This document shows positions 1-9,880 of a stretch of 38,627 bases of DNA, piece by piece. The position numbers and the translations under genes are program-made. The notes beneath the pieces are model-generated. The model worked only from the letters and a program-made list of their open reading frames with translations. It had not been told where the DNA came from and searched no databases. This DNA comes from an uncultured Ruminococcus sp. GTDB taxonomy: Bacteria > Bacillota > Clostridia > Oscillospirales > CAG-272. The stretch lies in contig CAZPPN010000001.1 in assembly GCA_964588425.1 (NCBI GenBank), positions 1-38,627 of the forward strand, written 5' to 3'. The first letter of the stretch is position 1. The number at the start of each line of letters is the position of its first letter.

Positions 1-75
1 TTGCCGGAGTTTACCGCCGCTGATCTGTAGCCGGAGTTTACCGCCGCTGAGCTGTCTCCGGAGTTTACCGCTTTT
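1..75. repeat. 27-bp tandem repeat (gccggagtttaccgccgctgaNctgtN), coding; same array as 38498..38627
   Basis: Direct reading: about 2.7 units at the window start, in frame (9 aa per unit: SAAVNSG[YND][RSE] on the minus strand). Confidence 0.9.
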
Positions 76-509
76 ACTTCGTTCGGTATTTTTGCGATTT
101 TCTCTTTTATGTATTCAGTCTCAGCTTCCACAAGCCCGTCAATTCCGATTTTTGCGCCGATTTTTAGCTTTTTGGCGCAAAACTTCTCGTTGTCATCGGT
201 GTATGTCTCGTCAAGCGCTTCGACTTCGCAAAACTCGTTCAGATCGCCTTTAATGTTGCACGGCTCATAATATAGCAGCACGTCAAGCGGTCGGGCGCAG
301 AAGTGCATGCCTTTTTGGCAAATCTCCGCTTTTTTTTCCTCGAATACGGTGTTTTCGGCGTACTGCTTATCTAAGCACGTCATATCCGGGTTAAATCCTT
401 TGTAGCCTTTCATTTTCTTTTCCTCGCCGTCCGCAGCTTTCACCACCGTCTCAAACGGACGCGCATCGCGGTGATTCTTCAGTTTGAATTTCAGTCTGTA
501 TGTTTTCAT
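1..509 (-). CDS. N-terminal part of the junction-spanning gene: conserved N-domain (KGFNPDMTC...GMHFCARPLDVLLYY) followed by SAAVNSG nonapeptide repeats; continues at 38296..38627
   Basis: ATG at 507-509 with AAGAGGA upstream. The frame is open to the window edge. After collapsing the 49-bp overlap the frame runs into the ORF that stops at 38296 (792 nt, 263 aa). Confidence 0.75.
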   Translation of the reverse strand, partial: MKTYRLKFKLKNHRDARPFETVVKAADGEEKKMKGYKGFNPDMTCLDKQYAENTVFEEKKAEICQKGMHFCARPLDVLLYYEPCNIKGDLNEFCEVEALDETYTDDNEKFCAKKLKIGAKIGIDGLVEAETEYIKEKIAKIPNEVKAVNSGDSSAAVNSGYRSAAVNSG

Positions 510-552
510 GAATGTCCTCTTGATTTGGATTTTGTATTTTTGCAGTTAATAT

Positions 553-1485
553 CTACTTGTTTTTGTGAAATATCCCTTTATGCGTCTCACACCAATCATC
601 CCAATCAATAGTACGCCATTGACCCGAATATATATATTTCTGTGCCATAACATTTTGCCAATGTTCGGGCATTTCGCCAATTCTCATGTCTTTATATGGC
701 ATACCATAAATAGTTACAGATTTTAATTTGCGCATAGCATATATGCGTTGCAAATTATCATTCAAATCTTTTTTCAATAATATGTATATAAACAATTTTG
801 AGGTTGGTATCCCTTTTTCACAAAGAAGATCGGCCGCCCTGTACATACCTTCAATTTGCGGCTTCCTATCCACAGAAAACCGAATATATTTGATCCATTT
901 CAGTTCTGCAAATATGCCGGCAATTTCGGGGGTAATCGTAAATACACTTGTTGCTTGATTTATATCTATTCGATAATCTGTTTGGGATAGTTGTCGCAAT
1001 TGTTCAATTCCATGAGGATGAGATGTTATATTGTTATCCATCAACACAATTTTCTTTGTGTCGGGACGTACTATTTCTTGCCATTTTCTATATGGTTTTA
1101 TTTCGCCTTCTTTTTGAGGTACATAGCAGTTTTTGCATCTATTCGGACAACCTCGCGTTAAAAAACCAATTGCATAATCACAATCAGGATATATCGAATA
1201 GTCGGGAAACATATCATCTATTTCATCAGGCAGGTTCTCATAAATCCCATATCCTGTGCCCCCCTTTACTGTATGCTCTGGCAAATAAGGATTTTCAGGG
1301 GTAAAATCAAACACCTTACTTGAATATACTTTATCATACATCGAAGCGGATAGAGCGTTAAACCACTCAACAATATCACCTTGCTTTTTGTGATACGCAG
1401 ATATTTTCATCAATGCATAGTTGGGAAATTTGTCTTTTCTTTTCAAGTGTTCCGCATCAGCATCGTGCAATGCTATGTACATCAT
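553..1485 (-). CDS. Radical SAM enzyme with B12-binding-like N-terminal domain, function unknown
   Basis: CX3CX2C motif in GFLTRGCPNRCKNCYVP. N-terminal Rossmann-like segment FPNYALMKISAYHKKQGDIVEW. 4-nt overlap with the upstream ORF. Confidence 0.8.
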   Translation of the reverse strand: MMYIALHDADAEHLKRKDKFPNYALMKISAYHKKQGDIVEWFNALSASMYDKVYSSKVFDFTPENPYLPEHTVKGGTGYGIYENLPDEIDDMFPDYSIYPDCDYAIGFLTRGCPNRCKNCYVPQKEGEIKPYRKWQEIVRPDTKKIVLMDNNITSHPHGIEQLRQLSQTDYRIDINQATSVFTITPEIAGIFAELKWIKYIRFSVDRKPQIEGMYRAADLLCEKGIPTSKLFIYILLKKDLNDNLQRIYAMRKLKSVTIYGMPYKDMRIGEMPEHWQNVMAQKYIYSGQWRTIDWDDWCETHKGIFHKNK

Positions 1486-1817
1486 CTTCTCCTCCCGCAG
1501 CGTGCCGCACGTCTGATCTCGTCGGGCGTTACATACCCGAGTCGGCGCGGATCGGGATCGCGTTCATCAATGTACACATCACGTACCGCCGAACGTTTCC
1601 TGCCGCGCTCTGACGTTCCCGGATTTCTGTCGGGTGACATCACGGCAAGCATCACAAGGATCACAATGGACCACATCACACACTCAAGCGCAAGCACCGC
1701 ACGGCAGAGTGTGCCGAATTCCGCCGAATCCATCCCGATCAACGCCGCCGCACTCCCTCCGAAGATCAGCCAGTACAGCACAAATCCGACAGCTGTTTGG
1801 ATTTTGTTCGTTTTCAT
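1482..1817 (-). CDS. Small membrane protein (two predicted TM helices, Arg-rich C-terminal tail)
   Basis: Hydrophobic stretches AVGFVLYWLIFGGSAAALIG and VMWSIVILVMLAVM. Start and stop overlap both neighbours by 4 nt. Confidence 0.6.
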   Translation of the reverse strand: MKTNKIQTAVGFVLYWLIFGGSAAALIGMDSAEFGTLCRAVLALECVMWSIVILVMLAVMSPDRNPGTSERGRKRSAVRDVYIDERDPDPRRLGYVTPDEIRRAARCGRRR

Positions 1818-2050
1818 TCCGCAGCCTCCATCTCAAGCCAGCATTTTATGCATTTCTTGCAAATGTTTTCGTCAAAATCTTCGATATCAAAATCGCCGTA
1901 TTGGTTTTTTATCGTTTTCTTCTGCATACATCTGCCCGAATGATACATCGTATTGCATGGCTGATCCATACCGACTACTCCGTCACATATCATCTCCGCT
2001 AACTTCCCGGGTGTGTTACATGTTTCTATGATCTTATCAAAGTTTGTCAT
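1814..2050 (-). CDS. Cys-rich small protein (78 aa), unknown function
   Basis: ATG at 2050 preceded by GGAGGAAAGAAGA and overlapping the upstream stop (ATGA). 8 Cys, including a C-terminal CKKCIKC. The track start at 2137 lacks an RBS. Confidence 0.6.
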   Translation of the reverse strand: MTNFDKIIETCNTPGKLAEMICDGVVGMDQPCNTMYHSGRCMQKKTIKNQYGDFDIEDFDENICKKCIKCWLEMEAAE

Positions 2051-2475
2051 TCTTCTTTCCTCCTTAAATCTTCTTCCGTGCAGCCGAGAGCATCGCATAA
2101 CTGCCGTACTTTCACAGGCTTCGGATCTGCCGCGCACATCTCGTACAGGTGTACCGAATTAACACATATTCCTGCGGATACCGCAAGCTCCTTCTGAGTC
2201 ATTCCCGCTTTGAGGCGAACCCGCTTCAGTCCGGGCAGTCCTGTTTTTATCGGACGCTTCTTTGCCCGTTCGAGGTCTCTTTGATGCTTGGCAGTCATTA
2301 CGGCGAGATGCCTTTCCTCAGCCTGTCTCTTCTGTTCGCATAAGCATTTCCATGAACAGTAGTATTTGCCCCTCCGATCCCGATATGCCCATATGCTCGG
2401 ATCAAACAACCCGAACTCCCTGCCGCATATCGGGCACGACCGTCGGAAGTTGTTGTATATGTAGTCACGTTCCAT
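2047..2475 (-). CDS. Zn-ribbon plus C-terminal XRE-type HTH protein
   Basis: CPICG...CSWKC pairs. HTH segment GMTQKELAVSAGICVNSVHLYE. Internal ATG at 2475 chosen because the longer ORF overlaps the upstream gene by >140 nt. Confidence 0.6.
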   Translation of the reverse strand: MERDYIYNNFRRSCPICGREFGLFDPSIWAYRDRRGKYYCSWKCLCEQKRQAEERHLAVMTAKHQRDLERAKKRPIKTGLPGLKRVRLKAGMTQKELAVSAGICVNSVHLYEMCAADPKPVKVRQLCDALGCTEEDLRRKEE

Positions 2476-2980
2476 TGCCGTACGCCCTCGATGCTGCTGC
2501 AGCGAAAAATTCATCTGTATCAAAACTGCTCTCGCGTGACTCATCTTCGCTCTTTCCGTTGAGGTACTTTTCGAATTTCGGACCGAAAAGCGTCTCAGGG
2601 CAAAGATACTTCTCAAACCTTGTCCCCTGCCATTCGCGATATTTGACTTCTATAACCTTTTCAAAGTCCTCGCGTTTGAATCCCTCGTTTACTCTTGCAT
2701 TGATGAGTTTTTTTGTATTCGCAGAAGATGTACGATACTTTGTCCCGCAGATATGATTGAGATAACCGACGATGTATGATACTTCTTCAGGCGAAACACT
2801 CACCGTGCGCTTGTTGTCATGGTCGATGATCTTTGTCAGTTCTTCAAACTCATCATCCGAATCGCGCTGTCCGAGACCATATGACATTATGTACTCCATT
2901 GCGTCCGCTTTTCTGCACTCGGGGAGCATCACAAAAGCAGCCGCAAGTTTTCCGCTGAAAAGAAATTTTTTGTTTTCCAT
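2465..2980 (-). CDS. Replisome organizer / DnaD-like protein carrying the conserved phage C-terminal domain
   Basis: YLNHICGTKYR...LINARVNEGFKREDFEKVIEVKYREWQGT..EKYLCPETLFGPKFEKYLN matches my memory of the TIGR02220-type domain. Confidence 0.7.
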   Translation of the reverse strand: MENKKFLFSGKLAAAFVMLPECRKADAMEYIMSYGLGQRDSDDEFEELTKIIDHDNKRTVSVSPEEVSYIVGYLNHICGTKYRTSSANTKKLINARVNEGFKREDFEKVIEVKYREWQGTRFEKYLCPETLFGPKFEKYLNGKSEDESRESSFDTDEFFAAAASRAYGNGT

Positions 2981-2985
2981 ATTTT

Positions 2986-3270
2986 TTACTCCATGTTGAA
3001 TTTCTCGACTGTTGCCTCATATCGCTCTGCCATCCGCTTGAATTCTTCGAAATCGACAGGCTCAACATCTTTGATCTTCGCAATGCTGATCGAATTTCGG
3101 TTTTTGTCTTCGAGTTCAGCCTCTCCCCTCTCCGGCGGATAACCTCTGCGTAAAATCTCGTATTCAGTCGAATATCGAATAGCAAGCGCTGAAATACGGT
3201 TGTATCTGATTCCTTGGCATACCACCGGGATTCTCCACCTTGCCGCTAACTTTGCCTCATCAACCGTCAT
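2986..3270 (-). CDS. Hypothetical early protein
   Basis: 94-aa ORF in the tightly packed early operon; 4-nt overlap with the upstream ORF. Confidence 0.55.
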   Translation of the reverse strand: MTVDEAKLAARWRIPVVCQGIRYNRISALAIRYSTEYEILRRGYPPERGEAELEDKNRNSISIAKIKDVEPVDFEEFKRMAERYEATVEKFNME

Positions 3271-3500
3271 TCTGCTTCAAGCTCCTTTCTTCTTTGTTTT
3301 TCGATTTCCTTTTTGCGTTTTGCCACACACGCCGGAGAACCGGAACAGACTTCTTTCGTGCACGTCCTGCATATATCAGCATCTTTCATGCACTCTATCT
3401 TCTTGTTAGCTCTTGCTCCGTCTCCGCTGACTCTCTCACTGTCAAAAGCGTGAAAACATCCGTCAGCACCGCATGATCTTCTGATTGATCCTCTTGACAA
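3267..3500 (-). CDS. Hypothetical Cys-rich early protein (77 aa)
   Basis: TTG at 3500 preceded by AAGGAGGAATAAA. The longer track ORF (to 3644) would overlap the upstream gene by about 140 nt. Confidence 0.5.
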   Translation of the reverse strand: MSRGSIRRSCGADGCFHAFDSERVSGDGARANKKIECMKDADICRTCTKEVCSGSPACVAKRKKEIEKQRRKELEAE

Positions 3501-3501
3501 T

Positions 3502-3726
3502 TTATTCCTCCTTGTCTGCCGCAAGATGCTCACGAAACCATTCCTCGCCCAGCCGATCGAGAAGCGTTCGACTGAATCGGGCTGCGGCCTTGCGTAATGC
3601 TTCGTTGCGCTTTTCCTGCTGTTCGGGTGTCCTGACAGGATCATATACTATCGTTGTGCAGTTGTTTCCCGATATGTATGTTACGTTGTATTCGATCCCG
3701 TTTACTGTTTCTCTCTGACTTTCCAT
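3502..3726 (-). CDS. Hypothetical early protein
   Basis: ATG with AAGGAAGGTG 7 nt upstream; 74 aa. Confidence 0.6.
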   Translation of the reverse strand: MESQRETVNGIEYNVTYISGNNCTTIVYDPVRTPEQQEKRNEALRKAAARFSRTLLDRLGEEWFREHLAADKEE

Positions 3727-3788
3727 CCGTGAGCACCTTCCTTTCTTTACTTATTCAATCTTATTCCTGTAGTCTTTCGCTAATGCTG

Positions 3789-3965
3789 TCATGATGCCTT
3801 GTCATCTTTGCCTTCCTCGGGCGAAGTCTTTTTTCTGTTCTCCGCGATCTTGATGCCTGCTATGATGCCGTTGAGATGTGTAAGCGCAAGCTCCCTCTCG
3901 ATCGGCGTCATCTCGTTGAGTACGGCTACAATGTTTTCTGCGTTTGTTCTTTCTGCTGTTGTCAT
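3789..3965 (-). CDS. Small first gene of the early operon (58 aa, below the ORF-track cutoff); Cro/early-regulator position
   Basis: ATG at 3963-3965 preceded by GGAGGTCAGAAAA. Translation MTTAERTNAENIVAVLNEMTPIERELALTHLNGIIAGIKIAENRKKTSPEEGKDDKAS. No recognisable HTH, so the functional call is positional only. Confidence 0.55.
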   Translation of the reverse strand: MTTAERTNAENIVAVLNEMTPIERELALTHLNGIIAGIKIAENRKKTSPEEGKDDKAS

Positions 3966-3978
3966 TTTTCTGACCTCC

Positions 3979-4007
3979 TTGATTTTTGTTTTTGTTTGAG
4001 TTATAAT
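3979..4007 (+). promoter_or_regulatory. Sigma-A-type promoter, TTGATT-17 nt-TATAAT
   Basis: Read directly from the sequence; 45 nt upstream of the 4053 ORF. Confidence 0.6.
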
Positions 4008-4052
4008 GTGTTTAAGGTGGTGATTGCTTTGGATAACTACGATTACAAAATT

Positions 4053-4388
4053 ATGAATTTCATTTGTTCTTCAACATCTGATGTTGTTCGGATGTCCGAT
4101 ATTTCCGTGAAGTTCGGTGCTGCCGGACGCGAATCAGCCGTTTCCCTTTGTAAAAACAAACTTCTTTCATGGGCTTATTCGGAAGATGATATCTTTTCCC
4201 ATGATGAATACGGTATTATCAAACCCACACCGAAAGGCTTGCTTGAATACGAAAGGTTCAAATATAACCGCCAGCTCCGAAAAGGTGAGGTTTGGCGCGA
4301 ACGGATCTTCGGCTATGTCATCGGTGTGCTTACTCCGGTTACAGCATACCTTATCACAGAGTTCGTAATACCTCTATTATGTAAATAA
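4053..4388 (+). CDS. Tail-anchored (C-terminal TM) small protein, lysogeny-side accessory gene 'a'
   Basis: ATG at 4053 (alternative TTG at 4029 after AAGGTGG). C-terminal hydrophobic FGYVIGVLTPVTAYLITEFVIPLL. The track start at 3876 overlaps the divergent gene. Confidence 0.6.
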   Translation: MNFICSSTSDVVRMSDISVKFGAAGRESAVSLCKNKLLSWAYSEDDIFSHDEYGIIKPTPKGLLEYERFKYNRQLRKGEVWRERIFGYVIGVLTPVTAYLITEFVIPLLCK

Positions 4389-4458
4389 TCGCAAGCCCCG
4401 TAAAACTCCCTAAGAGGTAAAATATTATGGCTAAAAAATCGAACCCGTTGTCTTTCAC
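4354..4458 (-). CDS. 34-aa hydrophobic peptide ORF (MKDNGFDFLAIIFYLLGSFTGLAIIYIIEVLRTL), type I toxin-like
   Basis: GTG at 4458 preceded by AAGGAGGGCGAGAGG. The same RBS-start block recurs at 5226. One TM-length hydrophobic core. Its 3' end overlaps gene 'a' by 35 nt. Confidence 0.4.
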   Translation of the reverse strand: MKDNGFDFLAIIFYLLGSFTGLAIIYIIEVLRTL

Positions 4459-4478
4459 CCTCTCGCCCTCCTTGTGTG

Positions 4479-4507
4479 TTGATTTTCAAATGTGTTTGGT
4501 GTATAAT
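4479..4507 (+). promoter_or_regulatory. Sigma-A-type promoter, TTGATT-17 nt-TATAAT
   Basis: Read directly. Sequence-similar to the 3979 promoter (TTGATTTT...GTTTG..TATAATG). Confidence 0.55.
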
Positions 4508-4527
4508 GGCTATGGCTGTTGATTTCA

Positions 4528-4677
4528 TTATCTCGAGACTTTCAGCAACAGATCGCCAAGTTCCCGATATACTTTATGTACTGCGGATTCGATTGTCGGC
4601 TTTGGCTTCTCCGGAAAGTTCCGCTGATCTTCACTAAACCATATCTTAATCAGTTCATATATGTTCATTGCTTTCAT
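4528..4677 (-). CDS. Small hypothetical protein (49 aa; MKAMNIYELIKIWFSEDQRNFPEKPKPTIESAVHKVYRELGDLLLKVSR)
   Basis: Sub-threshold ORF. GAGAGGA lies 8 nt upstream of the second ATG (4668). Composition is more protein-like than the overlapping + strand ORF 4519..4716. Confidence 0.4.
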   Translation of the reverse strand: MKAMNIYELIKIWFSEDQRNFPEKPKPTIESAVHKVYRELGDLLLKVSR

Positions 4678-4739
4678 CCTCTCGCTCTTCTAATTTTTTA
4701 TTTTAATGATTTTTAATCAACCGCAGAAAGGATATGATT

Positions 4740-5126
4740 ATGTCTTTACAATCTAAAAAGGTCTTAAACGATCTTATAAGATGTCAACGCTTTGAGGGAA
4801 ACGAAATTTTTGTTGATTATGATTCTCAAACTATCGGGGGATTCCATGAAAATGAAGAAAGCGATTTATCTGTTAATTTTCGTTATCCGGAATCGGAAAT
4901 GATATCAATATTTAACCATCTTGCATCGGAAGATTATATTATTGATACATCCGGCGGATACTGGAATTGTCTGAGCGTTACCCACAAAGGAAATCACCAT
5001 ATTCAAACTGCCGTTTCAAAAATATTTAGGTTTTTGTCCGAATCGGTTGTTGTCCCTATAATTGTCGCGTTTCTGACTTCAGTTGTTTATAATCTCTTGG
5101 CTCGCTGGTTTCCGTGGCTCAGATAG
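4740..5126 (+). CDS. Tail-anchored (C-terminal TM) small protein, accessory gene 'b' (same architecture as 4053..4388)
   Basis: AAAGGA 7 nt upstream of the ATG at 4740 (the ATG at 4734 is too close). C-terminal VVVPIIVAFLTSVVYNLLARWF. Confidence 0.65.
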   Translation: MSLQSKKVLNDLIRCQRFEGNEIFVDYDSQTIGGFHENEESDLSVNFRYPESEMISIFNHLASEDYIIDTSGGYWNCLSVTHKGNHHIQTAVSKIFRFLSESVVVPIIVAFLTSVVYNLLARWFPWLR

Positions 5127-5226
5127 ATATTAACCAATCAAGAATAATGTTGCATATCAAACTTGCAATAAATGCCACGATTGAATTAAATAATATCGGA
5201 TGTTTTTTGCGAAATCTTTTATCCAC
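5119..5226 (-). CDS. 35-aa basic/hydrophobic peptide ORF ((M)DKRFRKKHPILFNSIVAFIASLICNIILDWLISI), type I toxin-like
   Basis: GTG at 5226 preceded by AGGAGGGCGAGAGG (a block identical to that at 4458). A consensus promoter lies 60-85 nt upstream. Its 3' end overlaps gene 'b' by 8 nt. Confidence 0.45.
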   Translation of the reverse strand: MDKRFRKKHPILFNSIVAFIASLICNIILDWLISI

Positions 5227-5284
5227 CCTCTCGCCCTCCTGTGTTTTTGACTCAAAATTCATCACATCTTTGTGTTGTGTACTC

Positions 5285-5313
5285 ATTATATCATATGGTT
5301 TTTGAGTTGTCAA
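5285..5313 (-). promoter_or_regulatory. Leftward consensus promoter TTGACA-17 nt-TATAAT
   Basis: On the plus strand: tgtcaa at 5308-5313 and attata at 5285-5290. Confidence 0.65.
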
Positions 5314-5358
5314 CCACTTTTTCAAAAAAATTAACTCAATATTTTTTCCCAGATTGAG

Positions 5359-5387
5359 TTGACAACTCTTTTTGAGTGTGCTATAAT
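5359..5387 (+). promoter_or_regulatory. Rightward consensus promoter TTGACA-17 nt-TATAAT for the XRE repressor gene
   Basis: Read directly. Its -35 lies in GTTGACAACTC, the inverted repeat of GAGTTGTCAAC, which holds the leftward -35. Confidence 0.7.
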
Positions 5388-5410: not shown

Positions 5411-5797
5411 ATGAAAGATAGATTTAAGCTACTACGCAAAACACTAAATCTAACACAAACTGGCATGGGTGAAAAACTCGGAGTGAGTAGAGATGTCATC
5501 ACTAATATCGAACAAGGCCGAGTAGAAGCCAAACCAATTTTTATAACACATCTTTGCGAACTTTACGGCGTAAGTCAAACATGGCTTGAAACAGGCGAGG
5601 GCGAGATGTTTGAACCGCAGACACAGGATGAAGAACTTGCACAGCTGTTCGGTGATCTGCTCGGCGATCCCGATGACACTTTCAAAAAACGCTTCATAGC
5701 CGCCCTGCTCCAGCTCGATCCGAACGAATGGAGCGCAATTGAACAGTTCTGCCGCGCTGTAATCGACTCCCGAAACGAAAAAAAAGAGGACGGATGA
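5411..5797 (+). CDS. XRE-family HTH transcriptional repressor (CI-like, no S24 peptidase domain)
   Basis: GGAGGTGAGGACT precedes the ATG. HTH segment LTQTGMGEKLGVSRDVITNIEQGR. Sits at the divergent promoter region. Confidence 0.8.
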   Translation: MKDRFKLLRKTLNLTQTGMGEKLGVSRDVITNIEQGRVEAKPIFITHLCELYGVSQTWLETGEGEMFEPQTQDEELAQLFGDLLGDPDDTFKKRFIAALLQLDPNEWSAIEQFCRAVIDSRNEKKEDG

Positions 5798-5815
5798 AAA
5801 AATCTGTCCTCTTTT
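5786..5815 (+). terminator. Rho-independent terminator
   Basis: Stem gaggacgga/tctgtcctc (one G-U) followed by TTTT; overlaps the repressor stop codon. Confidence 0.6.
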
Positions 5816-5905
5816 GCTGTTTATTGCGTTTCCCCCTTGATATCTTATGCCGAAAGTAGTATAATTGTTTTATAAACTAAACATTGCATTTACGAGGATT
5901 TTTCT

Positions 5906-6970
5906 GTGATTGTATCAAATATATTACTGTACGGCGGCATATATATATTATTTTGCGGTTTAATTATCGCACCTGAATTTTCATCTCCGGTGTGGTGGAT
6001 TTTGATGATAATTGGTGCTGTAATGATAATTATATCTCGTATATGTTATCGTTCCGCCAAAGAAAAAAAGGAAGCTGCGCTTCAAGCCCATCTTGATGCT
6101 ATTGAGAAAGTAAATCAAGCTCTCCGCGCCGCCGAAGAAGCAAAACGCCAAGCTCGTCTTGAGGCAGAAGCAGCCGAGCGTCAAGCCCGTATTGAGGCAG
6201 AAGCAGCCGAGCGTCAAGCCCGTCTTGAGGCAGAAGCAGCCGAGCGTCAAGCCCGTCTTGAGGTCTATCGGGAAGAGCTGCGACAAAAAGAAGAATATGA
6301 GCGTCTTGAACGCGAACGCTTTCGCGGATTGCTTCTTTCCATTCCGAAATACGATATTACGGTAAATCCCTCTGCCGCAAAACAAAATATCAATGTAAGT
6401 GATTTTTATTTGAACTACACATCTCTACGAAAAAACCTAAATTTATCACGTGTTTCCAGTTTTGTCGCAATCGATACGGAAACCACAGGGCTTGTTCCCG
6501 GCAAAAATAAGATAGTTCAAATTTCCGCTATCCGTTTTGAAGAATTCATACCGTCCGAGATATTCACTACATACATTAACCCGGGGTGTTCGATCCCCTT
6601 AGAAGCCACGGATATACATGGGATTACAGATGAAATGGTATCCGATGCACCTCATTTTGAATGTATATTAGATTCATTGGAAGAATTTATCGGGGCATCC
6701 ACTCTTGTCGGGCATAATCTTCAATTCGATCTGAAGTTTTTGAGAAAATTTGGGTATGACAGCTTTAAACTGAATCGTTCTTATTTCGACACTCTGACAC
6801 TTAGCCGATTATACGATGACATTAGCAGTCATAGACTTTACGATGTGTGTAAAAAACACGGTATATATTATACTGCTCACGATTCATCCGAAGATGCTCT
6901 TGCATCAGGTCTTCTGTTTAAAAAATACTTGAAGATGAAAATCGGAGAGTGGTACGAAAGGCAGATATAA
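5906..6970 (+). CDS. Membrane-anchored, coiled-coil, DEDDh 3'-5' exonuclease (DnaQ/epsilon-like domain)
   Basis: Two N-terminal TM helices, an (RLEAEAAERQA)n repeat, Exo I AIDTETTG, Exo II GHNLQFDLKFL, Exo III HDSSEDA. GTG start with GAGGA 8 nt upstream. Confidence 0.8.
   Translation: MIVSNILLYGGIYILFCGLIIAPEFSSPVWWILMIIGAVMIIISRICYRSAKEKKEAALQAHLDAIEKVNQALRAAEEAKRQARLEAEAAERQARIEAEAAERQARLEAEAAERQARLEVYREELRQKEEYERLERERFRGLLLSIPKYDITVNPSAAKQNINVSDFYLNYTSLRKNLNLSRVSSFVAIDTETTGLVPGKNKIVQISAIRFEEFIPSEIFTTYINPGCSIPLEATDIHGITDEMVSDAPHFECILDSLEEFIGASTLVGHNLQFDLKFLRKFGYDSFKLNRSYFDTLTLSRLYDDISSHRLYDVCKKHGIYYTAHDSSEDALASGLLFKKYLKMKIGEWYERQI
6154..6262. repeat. 33-bp tandem repeat x3.3 (cgtcttgaggcagaagcagccgagcgtcaagcc), coding for the coiled-coil spacer
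   Basis: Read directly. In frame; 11 aa per unit. Confidence 0.9.
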
Positions 6971-6972
6971 TC

Positions 6973-7068
6973 ATGGGACTTAAATTCCGCAAATCAATCA
7001 ACCTCGGCAAACACTTCCGAATAAATATCGGCAAAAACGGTATCGGATACAGCTACTGTGTAAACTGA
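6973..7068 (+). pseudogene. Truncated DUF4236-like ORF (31 aa, MGLKFRKSINLGKHFRINIGKNGIGYSYCVN)
   Basis: The N-terminal motif MGxxFRKSxxLG..RxNxxKxGxG resembles DUF4236 as I recall it. The ORF stops after 31 codons. Confidence 0.4.
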
Positions 7069-7082
7069 TTATTACACAAACC

Positions 7083-7112
7083 AAAAGAGACCCCCTCCAA
7101 GGTCTCTTTTTT
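7083..7112. terminator. Bidirectional rho-independent terminator
   Basis: AAAAGAGACC-ccctccaa-GGTCTCTTTTTT. Confidence 0.7.
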
Positions 7113-7267: not shown

Positions 7268-7296
7268 TTGATTTATGTGATTTTATATGATATAAT
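7268..7296 (+). promoter_or_regulatory. Consensus promoter TTGATT-17 nt-TATAAT
   Basis: Read directly. Drives a leader of about 280 nt ahead of the 7579 ORF. Confidence 0.6.
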
Positions 7297-7384: not shown

Positions 7385-7578
7385 TTACTTGCTTTCGTTT
7401 CCTCCCTTCCTTGTGACTATATTTTATCACGAAAGGATTGGAAATAACAGTGCCAAAATCAAATGATACTTTCCCACTTTCGCAGTCGGATAACCATGAG
7501 TTTGGGAATAACACTTACCTTGATAACGGGAATTTGGGAATAGATTCGGAAATCGCGGAAAAAAAGGAGAAATCGCTC

Positions 7579-8241
7579 ATGCAGCCTACTTCCAAAACGG
7601 ACATTGATGCCTTGATCCATGATCACGGTGAGGAAATCATTCAGTTCCTTCACGAAAAACAAAAAGAAAAAGACCTGTCAAACGCAGATCTTATGTTTAT
7701 CACCCGAATCCCTCAAACATCGTTCTACCGCATCTGGAACAACGAATCCGCGCGTCCTAACTCGGATCATATATGCCGCCTTTGCCTCGCGCTGGGTGTA
7801 TCCATAGACGAATTTAAGCGAGATCCCACAGAGGACTCGACCATCAAACTCCCCGCGCTTAAAGCCAATTCCCATGAGGAGATCATGACTAACATGGTCG
7901 AGGAATACACGCATCAGAAAGAAACTATTGCGGCACTTAACAATGAAATCGATGAGAAAAATACTAAGATAGCTGCACTTGAATCGGCACTCGCAGAAAA
8001 GAACGATGAATTACTGCAATTCCAGCGAAAATCATCCGATAGGATAAATAAACTGACGGATGCACTTTTAGAACGGCACGATCAGATGCATGAACTTAAC
8101 ATCCTTAACAATCGCCGTGTCGACGAGCTGGAAAAGGATCTGCACGCGAGATATGATTTGTTGTATAAATTGTTCAACAAGTTGACATCGCAGAATACCG
8201 ACACGCTAATGTCTTTGATAGATAAAAATGTAACCGAATAG
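7579..8241 (+). CDS. HTH plus long coiled-coil protein upstream of the integrase (regulator or possible recombination directionality factor)
   Basis: AAGGAGA 8 nt upstream of the ATG at 7579. HTH-like LSNADLMFITRIPQTSFYRIWN. C-terminal heptad-rich region. The track start at 7438 (TTG) has no usable RBS spacing. Confidence 0.65.
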   Translation: MQPTSKTDIDALIHDHGEEIIQFLHEKQKEKDLSNADLMFITRIPQTSFYRIWNNESARPNSDHICRLCLALGVSIDEFKRDPTEDSTIKLPALKANSHEEIMTNMVEEYTHQKETIAALNNEIDEKNTKIAALESALAEKNDELLQFQRKSSDRINKLTDALLERHDQMHELNILNNRRVDELEKDLHARYDLLYKLFNKLTSQNTDTLMSLIDKNVTE

Positions 8242-8320: not shown

Positions 8321-9880
8321 ATGTACGAAGAAAAGAAAGTACCGTTTAACAAGATCGTAGCATACTTACGAAAATCCCGCGCTGACGGGGATACGGAAAC
8401 CGTTGAGGAAGTATTGGCCAAGCATGAGAAAATCCTGCAGGAATATATGCTGAGATGCTATAATGCGGAACTTCCGCAGAAGTGCATTTTTCGTGAAATA
8501 ATGTCCGGTGAGACTATCGCGGCACGCCCTGTTGTTCAGCAAATTATCAGCATGATACAAGACGGCGTTGTTGAAGGCGTGTTTGTAGTCGATCTTCAGC
8601 GTCTCTCGCGTGGTGACTTGTCTGATGCAGGAGAGTTTTCGCGGCTCTTCCGTTATTCCGGCTGTTTGATAATCACCCCCGGCAGAACTTTCGATATCAC
8701 AGATGAGTATGATCGGAAATTTTTTGAAACAGAACTGATGCGCGGCAATGATTATCTCGAGTATACCAAAAAGATAATGCTTCGCGGTCGCATCCAGTCA
8801 ACAAAATCGGGAAATTATGTTGGATCTGTACCGCCATATGGCTATGACAAAACATTCGTTGATAAAAGATCTACTTTAATACCCAATCCTGTAGAAGCTG
8901 ATATCGTAAAATTAATATTTGATTTGTATACATCGGATATGAAATACGGTCCCCAACTGATTGCCAATAAGCTCAACGACATGGGATATAAAGCTCGAAA
9001 GGGCGATATTTGGACTCCATACGTTATCAAGGGAATCGTGGAAAATCCGGTTTACATCGGGAAAGTCGTGTGGAATCGCCGTAAAGCGGTTGCTGTGTAT
9101 CAAGACGGAAAACTTATAAAAAAGCGTCCGCGAAATCACGATTACATAATCGCAGACGGTATACATGAGCCATTAATAAGCGAGGAAACATTTAATAAGG
9201 CAAAGGATATTATTAAATCCCGTGCGCATCCGGCCAGCCGTACCGACCGAAAAAATGTTGTCAATCCGCTGCTCGGAATCCTCCATTGCCGATGTGGATA
9301 TGTTATGACATATAAGATTACGTATAGTGATCCTAATGTTTCTCCTGTCTATATGTGTCCTCGCGGCGGAAAGTTGTGTGATTGCCGTGGCGCACTTGTA
9401 GATCGGGTGATAGAAGAATTGTATAATGCACTCAACTCAACTCTCGTTAAACTCAAAATCGAGCTTGCTGAGGATGGCGGAGCAGTACCTGATTCTGCTA
9501 CAGTGCTGATCGATGCGTATAATAAAGAACTTGCGGACCTAAAGAAACAACAATCAAGATTATACGATCTTCTTGAAAAAGGTATTTACAGCGAGGATAT
9601 ATTTATAGAACGAAGCAAACTGTTAAAAGAACGCCATGAAAAAATAACTTCAGAACTGACCGAATTAACAAGTGTTGTAAAAAGCGATGCTGACCGTCAA
9701 CTCTTTGTAACAAATCTCGAAAAGTGTGTGAAAATTCTGAAAGATTCCTCTATTGAGCCGGAAGAAAAGAATGTACTATTGAAAACGATCATAAACCGAA
9801 TAGAATATTCACGCGATAAATCAAGCCGAAGAAAATATGATGATACACCAATTACACTAAAGGTATATTATAATATATGA
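8321..9880 (+). CDS. int: Large serine recombinase (phage integrase)
   Basis: N-terminal resolvase catalytic motif VAYLRKSRADGD. 519 aa with recombinase domain, Cys-rich zinc-ribbon region (CRCG...CPRGG..CDC) and C-terminal coiled coil. Confidence 0.9.
   Translation: MYEEKKVPFNKIVAYLRKSRADGDTETVEEVLAKHEKILQEYMLRCYNAELPQKCIFREIMSGETIAARPVVQQIISMIQDGVVEGVFVVDLQRLSRGDLSDAGEFSRLFRYSGCLIITPGRTFDITDEYDRKFFETELMRGNDYLEYTKKIMLRGRIQSTKSGNYVGSVPPYGYDKTFVDKRSTLIPNPVEADIVKLIFDLYTSDMKYGPQLIANKLNDMGYKARKGDIWTPYVIKGIVENPVYIGKVVWNRRKAVAVYQDGKLIKKRPRNHDYIIADGIHEPLISEETFNKAKDIIKSRAHPASRTDRKNVVNPLLGILHCRCGYVMTYKITYSDPNVSPVYMCPRGGKLCDCRGALVDRVIEELYNALNSTLVKLKIELAEDGGAVPDSATVLIDAYNKELADLKKQQSRLYDLLEKGIYSEDIFIERSKLLKERHEKITSELTELTSVVKSDADRQLFVTNLEKCVKILKDSSIEPEEKNVLLKTIINRIEYSRDKSSRRKYDDTPITLKVYYNI

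Follow-up and report, generated by a model that had tools for sequence, protein, structure and literature searches.

A putative antisense-interrupted lytic operon leader built from shuffled cassettes of membrane proteins and micro-proteins in a temperate phage

Introduction

What is the purpose of a small membrane protein gene that is opposed, tail-to-tail, by a still smaller hydrophobic peptide gene, and why should such a pair be repeated beside a phage regulatory switch? The question is raised by positions 3979-5239 of a 38,627-nucleotide (nt) stretch of contig CAZPPN010000001.1 from an uncultured Ruminococcus sp. (hereafter the window; all positions are those of its full length). A first-pass annotation of the locus had read the pairs as type I toxin-antitoxin-like, or alternatively had supposed that an early lytic transcript yields the peptides as its first products; the former reading fares poorly below, and the latter is a good fit with the evidence. 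To judge from related loci, region 3979-5239 is an accessory, recombinationally shuffled array composed of a cassette A, a decayed relic and a cassette B. Our preferred reading, to which we assign a probability of about 0.5, is that this array forms the leader of a lytic operon interrupted by antisense genes (a noncontiguous operon), and that its peptides are plausible cognate antagonists of partner proteins expressed in the lysogen.

The array and its parts

Promoters and terminators were predicted throughout by simple consensus scans, with a promoter cut-off of 9/12, and the loci used for comparison are labelled L017-L026. Read leftwards from the predicted early lytic promoter (PL), the array alternates between strands, in the order pepB (minus), gene B (plus), the relic, pepA (minus), gene A (plus) and a core early gene of 58 amino acids (aa) (minus); the same alternating-strand order is found in L017, L018 and L019. 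Its features, including open reading frames (ORFs), transmembrane (TM) segments, Shine-Dalgarno (SD) sequences and ribosome-binding sites (RBSs), are as follows.

3789-3965, minus strand: first core early gene, 58 aa, directly behind PL in cassette-free relatives
3979-4007, plus strand: promoter P3979, predicted to drive gene A; abuts the SD of the 58-aa leftward gene
4029-4388, plus strand: gene A, 119 aa, TTG start, predicted winged helix and TM anchor
4354-4458, minus strand: pepA, 34 aa, single TM, convergent with gene A, 35-nt ORF overlap
4456-4471, minus strand: block copy 1, the RBS, spacer and GTG start of pepA; part of the inter-cassette linker
4479-4507, plus strand: promoter P4479, TTGATT-17-TATAAT, nearest promoter able to drive gene B
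4506-4690, both strands: relic cassette, with a plus-strand 3' remnant, a 49-aa minus-strand ORF and a degenerate block
4740-5126, plus strand: gene B, 128 aa, C-terminal TM anchor, 8-nt ORF overlap with pepB
5119-5226, minus strand: pepB, 35 aa, basic N-terminus, single TM; first ORF of the predicted PL transcript
5224-5239, minus strand: block copy 2, GGAGGGCGAGAGG followed by GTG, the RBS, spacer and start of pepB; mosaic junction with the switch region

Each element listed in the first-pass annotation is found where it had been placed. The two plus-strand promoters at 3979-4007 and 4479-4507 both read TTGATT-17-TATAAT (10/12 each) and are 73% identical to one another, the two minus-strand ORFs overlap the plus-strand genes by 35 and 8 nt, and the 16-mer CACCCTCTCGCCCTCC is repeated exactly at 4456-4471 and 5224-5239. 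At up to three mismatches, three copies of this block were found where 0.31 would be expected by chance; its recurrence before homologous peptides in seven other contigs, which a search of relatives of the kind proposed at the outset revealed, is stronger evidence than that count. A weak fourth copy (3959-3992) is found beside P3979, where the 58-aa gene begins.

Three details required revision. Convergent cassettes are indeed repeated, but not as the two tandem modules first described, as a third, degenerate block at 4675-4690 marks a relic and the array runs A, relic, B. Gene A is present, but its start is not the ATG at 4053: with the family motif NYDYKI encoded upstream of that codon, it is placed at TTG 4029, which gives a protein of 119 aa and agrees with the 119-aa database protein P0001. 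Nor does the block supply the -35 element of P4479, as it ends at 4471 and the -35 begins at 4479.

Conservation of the micro-peptides

By the measure of their conservation in related contigs, pepA and pepB are protein-coding genes, and the view that the micro-ORFs are genuine and of TM type is upheld. Homologues of pepA lie tail-to-tail with homologues of gene A in L017, L018/L019 and L020 (peptides: window, MKDNGFDFLAIIFYLLGSFTGLAIIYIIEVLRTL; L017, MKQDGGFDIWVIIFYLFGSLTGWAIIYIIEVLRTL; L020, MKRDGGFDIVTLIFYLLGSLTGLAIIYILEELSIL), and homologues of pepB lie likewise against homologues of gene B in L021, L022 and L023. Over the 72 nt of pepA outside the overlap with gene A, the ratio of non-synonymous to synonymous differences per site (pN/pS) was 0.27-0.37 for pairs among the window, L017 and L020, compared with 0.44-2.7 in the other five frames, and 0.48-0.64 for pairs involving a swapped variant in L018. 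For pepB it was 0.21-0.33, with synonymous sites near saturation (pS 0.73-0.88), against 0.39-4.6 in control frames. The peptide frame had the lowest pN/pS of the six in all three pepA pairs from the window, L017 and L020, as well as in the window-L022 and window-L023 comparisons of pepB; an opposite-strand frame tied with or slightly undercut it in one L018 pair and in L022-L023.

Peptides are also better conserved than the proteins they oppose, with pepB 62-68% identical between loci compared with 48-51% for gene B. Kyte-Doolittle maxima over 17 residues reach 2.28 in pepA and 2.25 in pepB. Conservation of pepB is concentrated in the N-terminus and TM core and is least in the C-terminal residues, and the N-terminus of pepA is acidic. 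Neither peptide matched Pfam or NCBIfam, even at a permissive E-value cut-off, and their exact sequences were not in the protein collection that holds the window's other proteins, indicating that they are unannotated in the window's own record.

The switch and the leftward transcript

Its gene content shows the window to be the complete genome of a temperate phage. The minus strand carries terminase, portal, capsid and tape-measure genes, together with early and replication genes at positions 1-3965, including one for a Phg_2220_C replication-type protein, and a plus-strand lysogeny module comprises an XRE/HTH_19 repressor, a protein with a TM region and a DEDDh exonuclease domain, an HTH_26 protein and a large serine recombinase. 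G+C content is 0.39 across the array and lysogeny module, compared with 0.45-0.53 elsewhere in the window. The junction of array and lysogeny module holds the elements of a switch.

5285-5313, minus strand: PL, predicted early lytic promoter, TTGACA-17-TATAAT, 12/12
5302-5314: operator-like box TTGAGTTGTCAAC, overlapping PL
5354-5366 and 5358-5370: operator-like boxes at the PR-type promoter
5359-5387, plus strand: PR-type promoter of the XRE repressor, 12/12, divergent from PL
5411-5797, plus strand: XRE/HTH_19 repressor-like gene, served by the PR-type promoter

The perfect TTGACA-17-TATAAT on the minus strand at 5313-5285 (12/12) had been noticed from the outset and assigned to pepB as its own promoter. 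Given the phage context and the divergent 12/12 repressor promoter facing away from it, we instead identify it as the early lytic promoter; the two promoters share TTGAGTTGWCAAC operator-like boxes, of which the rest of the window has no exact copy. No other strong leftward promoter lies ahead of pepB, pepA and the core early genes: between PL and position 3966 no minus-strand promoter reached 9/12 except one at 4404-4376, inside the pepA ORF, and no minus-strand terminator is predicted between 5285 and 3789. With a single strong promoter and no predicted stop on that strand, the leftward transcript must, we infer, run antisense through genes B and A. In the other direction, the first predicted plus-strand intrinsic terminator after position 3979 is at 5782-5815, downstream of the array and after the repressor gene, a pattern repeated in L017. 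No operator boxes were found at the cassette promoters, so that A and B can be expected to be expressible in the lysogen. Gene B in the window has lost its proximal promoter, and P4479 would reach it by reading through the relic.

The linker and its mosaic junctions

In all eight cassette-bearing loci, each leftward micro-ORF is preceded by AAGGAGGG(C)(G/A)AGAGG(G/A)TG or by the one-base-shorter GGAGGGAGAGGGATG. The block thus reads, as first proposed, as a consensus SD, a 7-8-nt purine spacer and the start codon of the peptide ORFs. No plus-strand promoter accompanies the block copies that adjoin PL in L017, L022, L023 and the window. Since the block is kept with or without an adjoining plus-strand promoter, its constant association is with the minus-strand start, which bears out its assignment to the peptide ORFs and not to a plus-strand element.

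The same block marks the break point in three independent mosaic comparisons, which establishes the modularity of the array. Against L018, the window is 93-100% identical up to ~4300, only ~45% identical over 4304-4445 (the TM end of A together with pepA), 80-90% identical again across the linker at 4448-4507, and thereafter unrelated. Against L021, identity of 97-100% over 4575-5232 falls to ~45% exactly at 5224-5239, beyond which lies a different switch region. L019 and L021 share the same PL and leader and have different first cassettes joined to it at the block.

L017 carries a ~90-nt linker three times in near-identical form (5476-5560, 5905-6002 and 6431-6518), with a half copy by PL (7006-7040). 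Each runs from a minus-strand start and block through an A/T-rich stretch to TTGATT-17-TATAAT (TG-extended) and a plus-strand SD and start codon. These linkers are much better preserved than those of the window. In the preferred reading, the linker of block and promoter is also the homology used for the exchange of cassettes and switch regions.

An exact scan of IMG/VR with the 16-mer returned 16 single matches in unrelated contexts, consistent with chance. The 16-mer was also seen before a 46-aa hydrophobic ORF in two related IMG/VR contigs (L003, 1841-1994; L006, 1507-1660). This occurrence was judged a chance match, as it lies inside a 154-aa ORF by a terminase gene and has no convergent partner.

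Cassette turnover among relatives

Relatives with a plain switch were found through the 58-aa core protein. In L024, L025 and L026, PL diverges from the repressor gene, and a leader of 70-90 nt is all that separates PL from the 58-aa gene, cassettes being absent. The array is therefore accessory. Cassette number ranges from none in L024-L026, through at least one in L020 and two in L018 and L019, to three in L017, and the window has two plus the relic. Four further loci with cassettes follow the same plan, and the sequences compared contain at least five types of cassette.

Type 1: gene A with pepA
Type 2: gene B with pepB
Type 3 (L017): A-like 122-aa tail-anchored protein with a 42-aa TM peptide
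Type 4 (L018, L019): 148-aa protein with an N-terminal TM, with a 55-aa two-TM peptide
Type 5 (L017): soluble protein of 93 aa, opposed by a leftward ORF that is not hydrophobic

Four of the five types combine a TM-like leftward ORF with a membrane protein as the rightward product. Tail-to-tail overlap of the ORFs is always kept, at 8-57 nt, and partners are faithful to one another: A is found with pepA in 5/5 loci and B with pepB in 4/4.

The relic is a decayed member of type 5. Its plus-strand remnant (4506-4637) is homologous to the C-terminus of the 93-aa protein of L017 and retains only the last 43 codons, fused to the promoter; a degenerate block, GAAGAGCGAGAGGATG, at 4675-4690 stands before the 49-aa minus-strand ORF (4528-4677). 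This ORF was considered as a third functional peptide and rejected: it is non-hydrophobic, and its start codon and frame are lost in L021, which is 99% identical. On this comparison, the relic at 4506-4690 shows cassette turnover in progress. As in phage morons, the cassettes have their own promoters (3979 and 4479), are absent from L024-L026 and deviate in G+C content; the classical downstream terminator is missing.

The partner proteins

A and B have very few relatives among 5.8 billion clusters. A profile search with the A family against 1.84 billion representatives gave 26 matches at E < 1e-3, about 18 of which are 105-134 aa long and share an NFDYKIL... motif, the juxtamembrane motif W(K/R)ERI-G and a hydrophobic helix at the C-terminus. 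The window protein itself matched nothing in Pfam, NCBIfam, PADLOC or PHROG, and one of 19 relatives gave Pfam HTH_24 (E = 0.022). An AlphaFold (AF2) model built from a 19-sequence alignment (predicted local distance difference test score, pLDDT, 88.7) has a winged helix followed by a continuous helix over residues 68-118. Foldseek matches in the Protein Data Bank (PDB) were essentially all to MarR-family proteins within the top 50, the best being MepR (5ffx; E = 4.8e-4, probability 1.0, TM-score ~0.6); an earlier, shallower model pointed weakly in the same direction. A sequence search of the PDB with the A-family profile returned nothing meaningful. According to the model, then, A is a MarR-like winged helix carried on a long helix that ends in a membrane anchor, and belongs to a rare family absent from Pfam.

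Gene B encodes a soluble domain and a tail anchor, the same layout as A, and its only match was a weak one to phrog_12206, of unknown function. That A and B are themselves homologous was considered and is not supported (hhalign probability 1%). The second tail-anchored protein of L017 has the juxtamembrane motif of A. Searches of GenBank phages by blastn and tblastn found no relatives of the region, A, B or pepB, and back-translated scans of viral, JGI metagenome and GTDB contigs with A, B, A-family alignments and the 58-aa protein likewise found none.

The A-family profile also matches long proteins of 569-1911 aa (P0016, of 810 aa, P0029, P0031, P0032 and others), in 4-13 repeated short stretches at profile positions ~40-86, which cover the wing and the following helix. 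These may be repeat proteins with a similar motif or a low-complexity artefact.

Other features of the phage

Within the lysogeny module, a 354-aa protein (5906-6970, plus strand) has an N-terminal TM region, a DEDDh/RNase_T exonuclease domain and four tandem ~11-residue repeats (AEAAERQARLE-like). Matches to the PADLOC entries DEDDh (1e-38) and PDC-S48 (7e-32) make its gene a candidate for a defence gene carried by the prophage. A strong bidirectional terminator hairpin (7083-7110) separates the exonuclease and recombinase genes, and 3' of it lies the gene for a 267-aa protein with HTH_26 and a coiled coil (7438-8241), with its own promoter-like site at 7268-7296. Among the early genes is one for a 310-aa radical SAM protein (553-1485, minus strand; PF04055, 2e-8; CPNRCKNC motif). 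The window encodes a large serine recombinase (8321-9880) and L017, a related 38-kb phage, a tyrosine integrase (PF00589; 9910-10980) and, in its early region, a DNA methylase. On these differences, mosaicism between the two phages extends well beyond the cassette array.

How the array may work

In its layout the array resembles an either-or switch between lysogeny and lysis more than it does a classical type I toxin-antitoxin system. In the lysogen, PL would be repressed and A and B made, and their unterminated transcripts would cross the peptide genes and PL in antisense and continue towards the repressor gene, possibly yielding extra repressor message. On induction or infection, PL would fire, and its transcription would collide with and silence A and B, making expression of the two sets mutually exclusive; pepB and pepA would be made at once, translated from the strong conserved RBS, GGAGGG(C)GAGAGG and then the start codon. 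The peptides would then antagonise their cognate membrane partners and so switch off a lysogen-specific function, for example exclusion or defence, that is otherwise harmful to the phage's own lytic cycle. It is above all this last step, from pairing to antagonism, that we infer.

Partner fidelity, the membrane character of both members in four of five types, and the swapping of A's TM segment and pepA as a unit all favour an antagonist role, which we hold to be the best single hypothesis for the peptides at somewhat less than even odds. A further generalisation is more tentative still, and in our view possible but on balance unlikely: that the cassettes represent a 'lock-and-key' class, in which a tail-anchored prophage effector is neutralised in the membrane by an antisense-encoded single-TM micro-protein made only from PL, with cassettes stacked in the operon leader and shuffled at a ~60-90-nt bidirectional linker that is RBS, promoter and recombination site together.

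Several points weigh against the reading of the array as an interrupted operon with cognate antagonists. Co-transcription across A and B is deduced from the absence of promoters and terminators in consensus scans. The comparative set is small, at eight cassette-bearing loci of which several are short contigs. In type 5, represented by the 93-aa gene of L017 and the relic of the window, the leftward ORF is non-hydrophobic and poorly maintained, so the pairing rule does not hold throughout. A's TM segment and pepA are swapped together, but their ORFs physically overlap, which confounds this observation. Neither A, B nor the peptides match a PADLOC defence family, and a defence or exclusion role for A and B is therefore a guess. 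Finally, in the Tha/Ith system with which we compare the array below, the interruption is reversed: the small gene interrupts a lysogenic operon, whereas here lysogenic genes interrupt a lytic one, and the analogy is therefore one of logic and not of homology.

Alternative explanations

The rival that survives best, although we consider it unlikely, lets the two sets of genes work independently. The peptides would then be ordinary membrane micro-proteins of early lytic growth, concerned with host takeover or membrane modulation, A and B unrelated morons, and the pairing a by-product of insertion and exchange at an RBS/promoter linker that brings one micro-ORF with each unit. That the linker is a recombination junction, that cassettes are optional, that peptides of different cassette types have no evident similarity to each other and that one type has a non-hydrophobic, unstable leftward ORF are all in keeping with this account. 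It does less well with the observations that each peptide type occurs only with its own partner, that both members are membrane proteins in four of five types, that the tail-to-tail overlap is always kept and that peptides are more conserved than partners.

A type I toxin-antitoxin-like arrangement, in which pepA and pepB are membrane toxins and the 3' ends of the opposing A and B mRNAs, or short RNAs started from weak promoters within those ends, restrain their translation or mRNA stability, and which would stabilise the prophage or cause abortive infection, now seems improbable, although the peptides themselves might have a toxin-like activity. The peptides do have the right form, being of 34-35 aa with one TM, within the 34-47-aa range of C. 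difficile prophage toxins (PMC7699646), and convergent genes that overlap at their 3' ends are typical of this reading. Candidate internal plus-strand promoters for an antitoxin RNA can also be found at 4353-4380 (9/12; in L017 at 6325-6352, 10/12) and 5034-5062 (10/12), but these weak promoter-like sites in the 3' ends of A and B fall within doubly coding sequence, and inspection of the homologous L022 by eye gave no evident equivalent of the second. No Rfam antisense family was found in the region (only a sub-threshold plastid motif), where the opposite strand is protein-coding, and no terminator delimits an antisense RNA or separates the cassettes on the plus strand. Nor is there an independent toxin promoter: pepB lies directly behind operator-flanked PL, pepA has no promoter of its own, and in L020 pepA follows directly on an ordinary 89-aa leftward gene, like an operon member. 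Folding of the leaders and of the plus-strand 3' regions gave nothing beyond shuffled controls, and thus neither a terminator nor an SD-sequestering hairpin; the leader is unstructured (z = -1.1), with GGAGGG unpaired and the SD exposed. The peptides match no known toxin family (Hok, Ldr, Fst, TxpA/BsrG or clostridial toxins) and do not have the lysine-rich C-terminal tail of the clostridial ones. Lastly, the cassettes are optional insertions in an operon leader and not free-standing addiction loci.

We judge equally sceptically the proposal that the array is an RNA-level lysis-lysogeny device to which the proteins are secondary, whereby constitutive transcription from P3979 and P4479 runs head-on into transcription from PL and reads through into the repressor gene, damping early lytic expression and feeding repressor synthesis. 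Transcriptional interference between convergent phage promoters is established (PMC5001618). The array would be suited to it: its promoters are repeated two to three times, and no plus-strand terminator is predicted all the way from 3979 to where the repressor gene ends (5815); L017 is alike. However, the peptide and A/B frames are under purifying selection or conserved, which implies that the proteins matter, and cassette-free relatives manage with a simple switch. That pepB is a signal-peptide-like pheromone precursor (SHP, PrgQ or AimP type) for phage communication draws on its basic N-terminus, followed by a hydrophobic stretch and no further domain, and on the convergent overlapping shp/rgg pairs that exist in streptococci, but is scarcely credible, given that the scanned window proteins include no TPR/RRNPP-type receptor (the repressor and the 267-aa HTH protein have no such domains), that the C-terminal residues of pepB, the would-be mature signal, are the least conserved and that the N-terminus of pepA is acidic and non-signal-like.

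Comparison with known systems

For the preferred reading, an antisense-interrupted lytic leader with cognate antagonists, the closest precedent in logic is Tha/Ith of the S. aureus prophages 80alpha and phi11, an experimentally established noncontiguous operon in which the product of a small gene, overlapping in antisense, blocks a defence protein of the prophage; that inhibitor of a lysogeny-expressed protein spares the prophage from harming itself on induction (PMC11087260). Both systems place a small, overlapping, opposite-strand lytic gene beside a lysogeny-expressed gene (expression being predicted here), near a cI/cro-type switch, and the mutually exclusive expression that antisense transcription imposes in Tha/Ith would follow the same logic in the array. 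The components differ. Tha and Ith are both soluble, the one a HEPN RNase and the other a small protein transcribed from a constitutive promoter of its own, whereas the array has membrane-anchored partners, one of them MarR-like, and single-TM micro-peptides that would be driven by the main lytic promoter, in several tandem cassettes joined by a conserved bidirectional linker. Homology to Tha or Ith was not detected, in that the cassette proteins have no PADLOC, Pfam or NCBIfam match; no direct comparison with either was made. If the preferred reading is true, the Tha/Ith rule would be general and modular, with accessory functions coupled to the life cycle by an antisense-encoded antagonist in a noncontiguous operon, and would reach membrane proteins and the lytic half of the switch as well. 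Unannotated functional micro-proteins of phages could then be sought by a signature, namely a self-promoted gene opposed tail-to-tail by a micro-ORF whose RBS reads GGAGGGnGAGAGG.

Noncontiguous operons have been defined, with peptides of <50 aa as frequent members (PMC11034616), and as in these and in excludons (Saenz-Lahoya 2019; PMC11034616; PMC7154746), pepB, pepA and the genes from the 58-aa gene onward are split by opposite-strand genes, which the operon transcript would have to span in full. Unlike typical examples, the array would have two to three interruptions in a row, and it is mobile and optional. With txpA/RatA and bsrG/SR4 of B. subtilis and CD0977.1/RCd11 of C. difficile (PMC7699646) it has in common a small hydrophobic peptide, a convergent 3' overlap and a prophage setting. 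Unlike in those type I loci, the peptides would be operon members behind a repressor-controlled PL, with a strong, exposed RBS and no antitoxin RNA gene.

Residues 1-85 of A and the helix that follows match MarR regulators such as MepR (5ffx) in predicted fold; unlike those regulators, A has no Pfam MarR match, and in the model its C-terminal dimerisation helices are replaced by one long helix with a TM anchor. A and its relatives make up a new family of tail-anchored MarR-like proteins, as predicted from the model.

Phage morons, and modular exchange at conserved boundary (linker) sequences as in lambdoid phages, offer a further parallel. The cassettes resemble morons in having their own promoters and a lower G+C content and in their variable presence between core genes, and their mosaic junctions fall at short conserved sequences. 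They differ from them in being inserted antisense in an operon leader, in having no terminators, in each carrying an opposite-strand micro-gene and in a linker that is at once RBS, promoter and recombination joint. They offer a concrete case of how short bidirectional linkers can drive cassette exchange in phage regulatory regions. The underlying logic of noncontiguous operons, antisense-encoded antagonists and morons is already known. What is new here is the pairing of membrane-anchored partners, one of them MarR-like, with single-TM micro-proteins, the position of the array on the lytic side of the switch, the stacking of several cassettes in tandem, and the use of one conserved bidirectional linker for translation, transcription and recombination.

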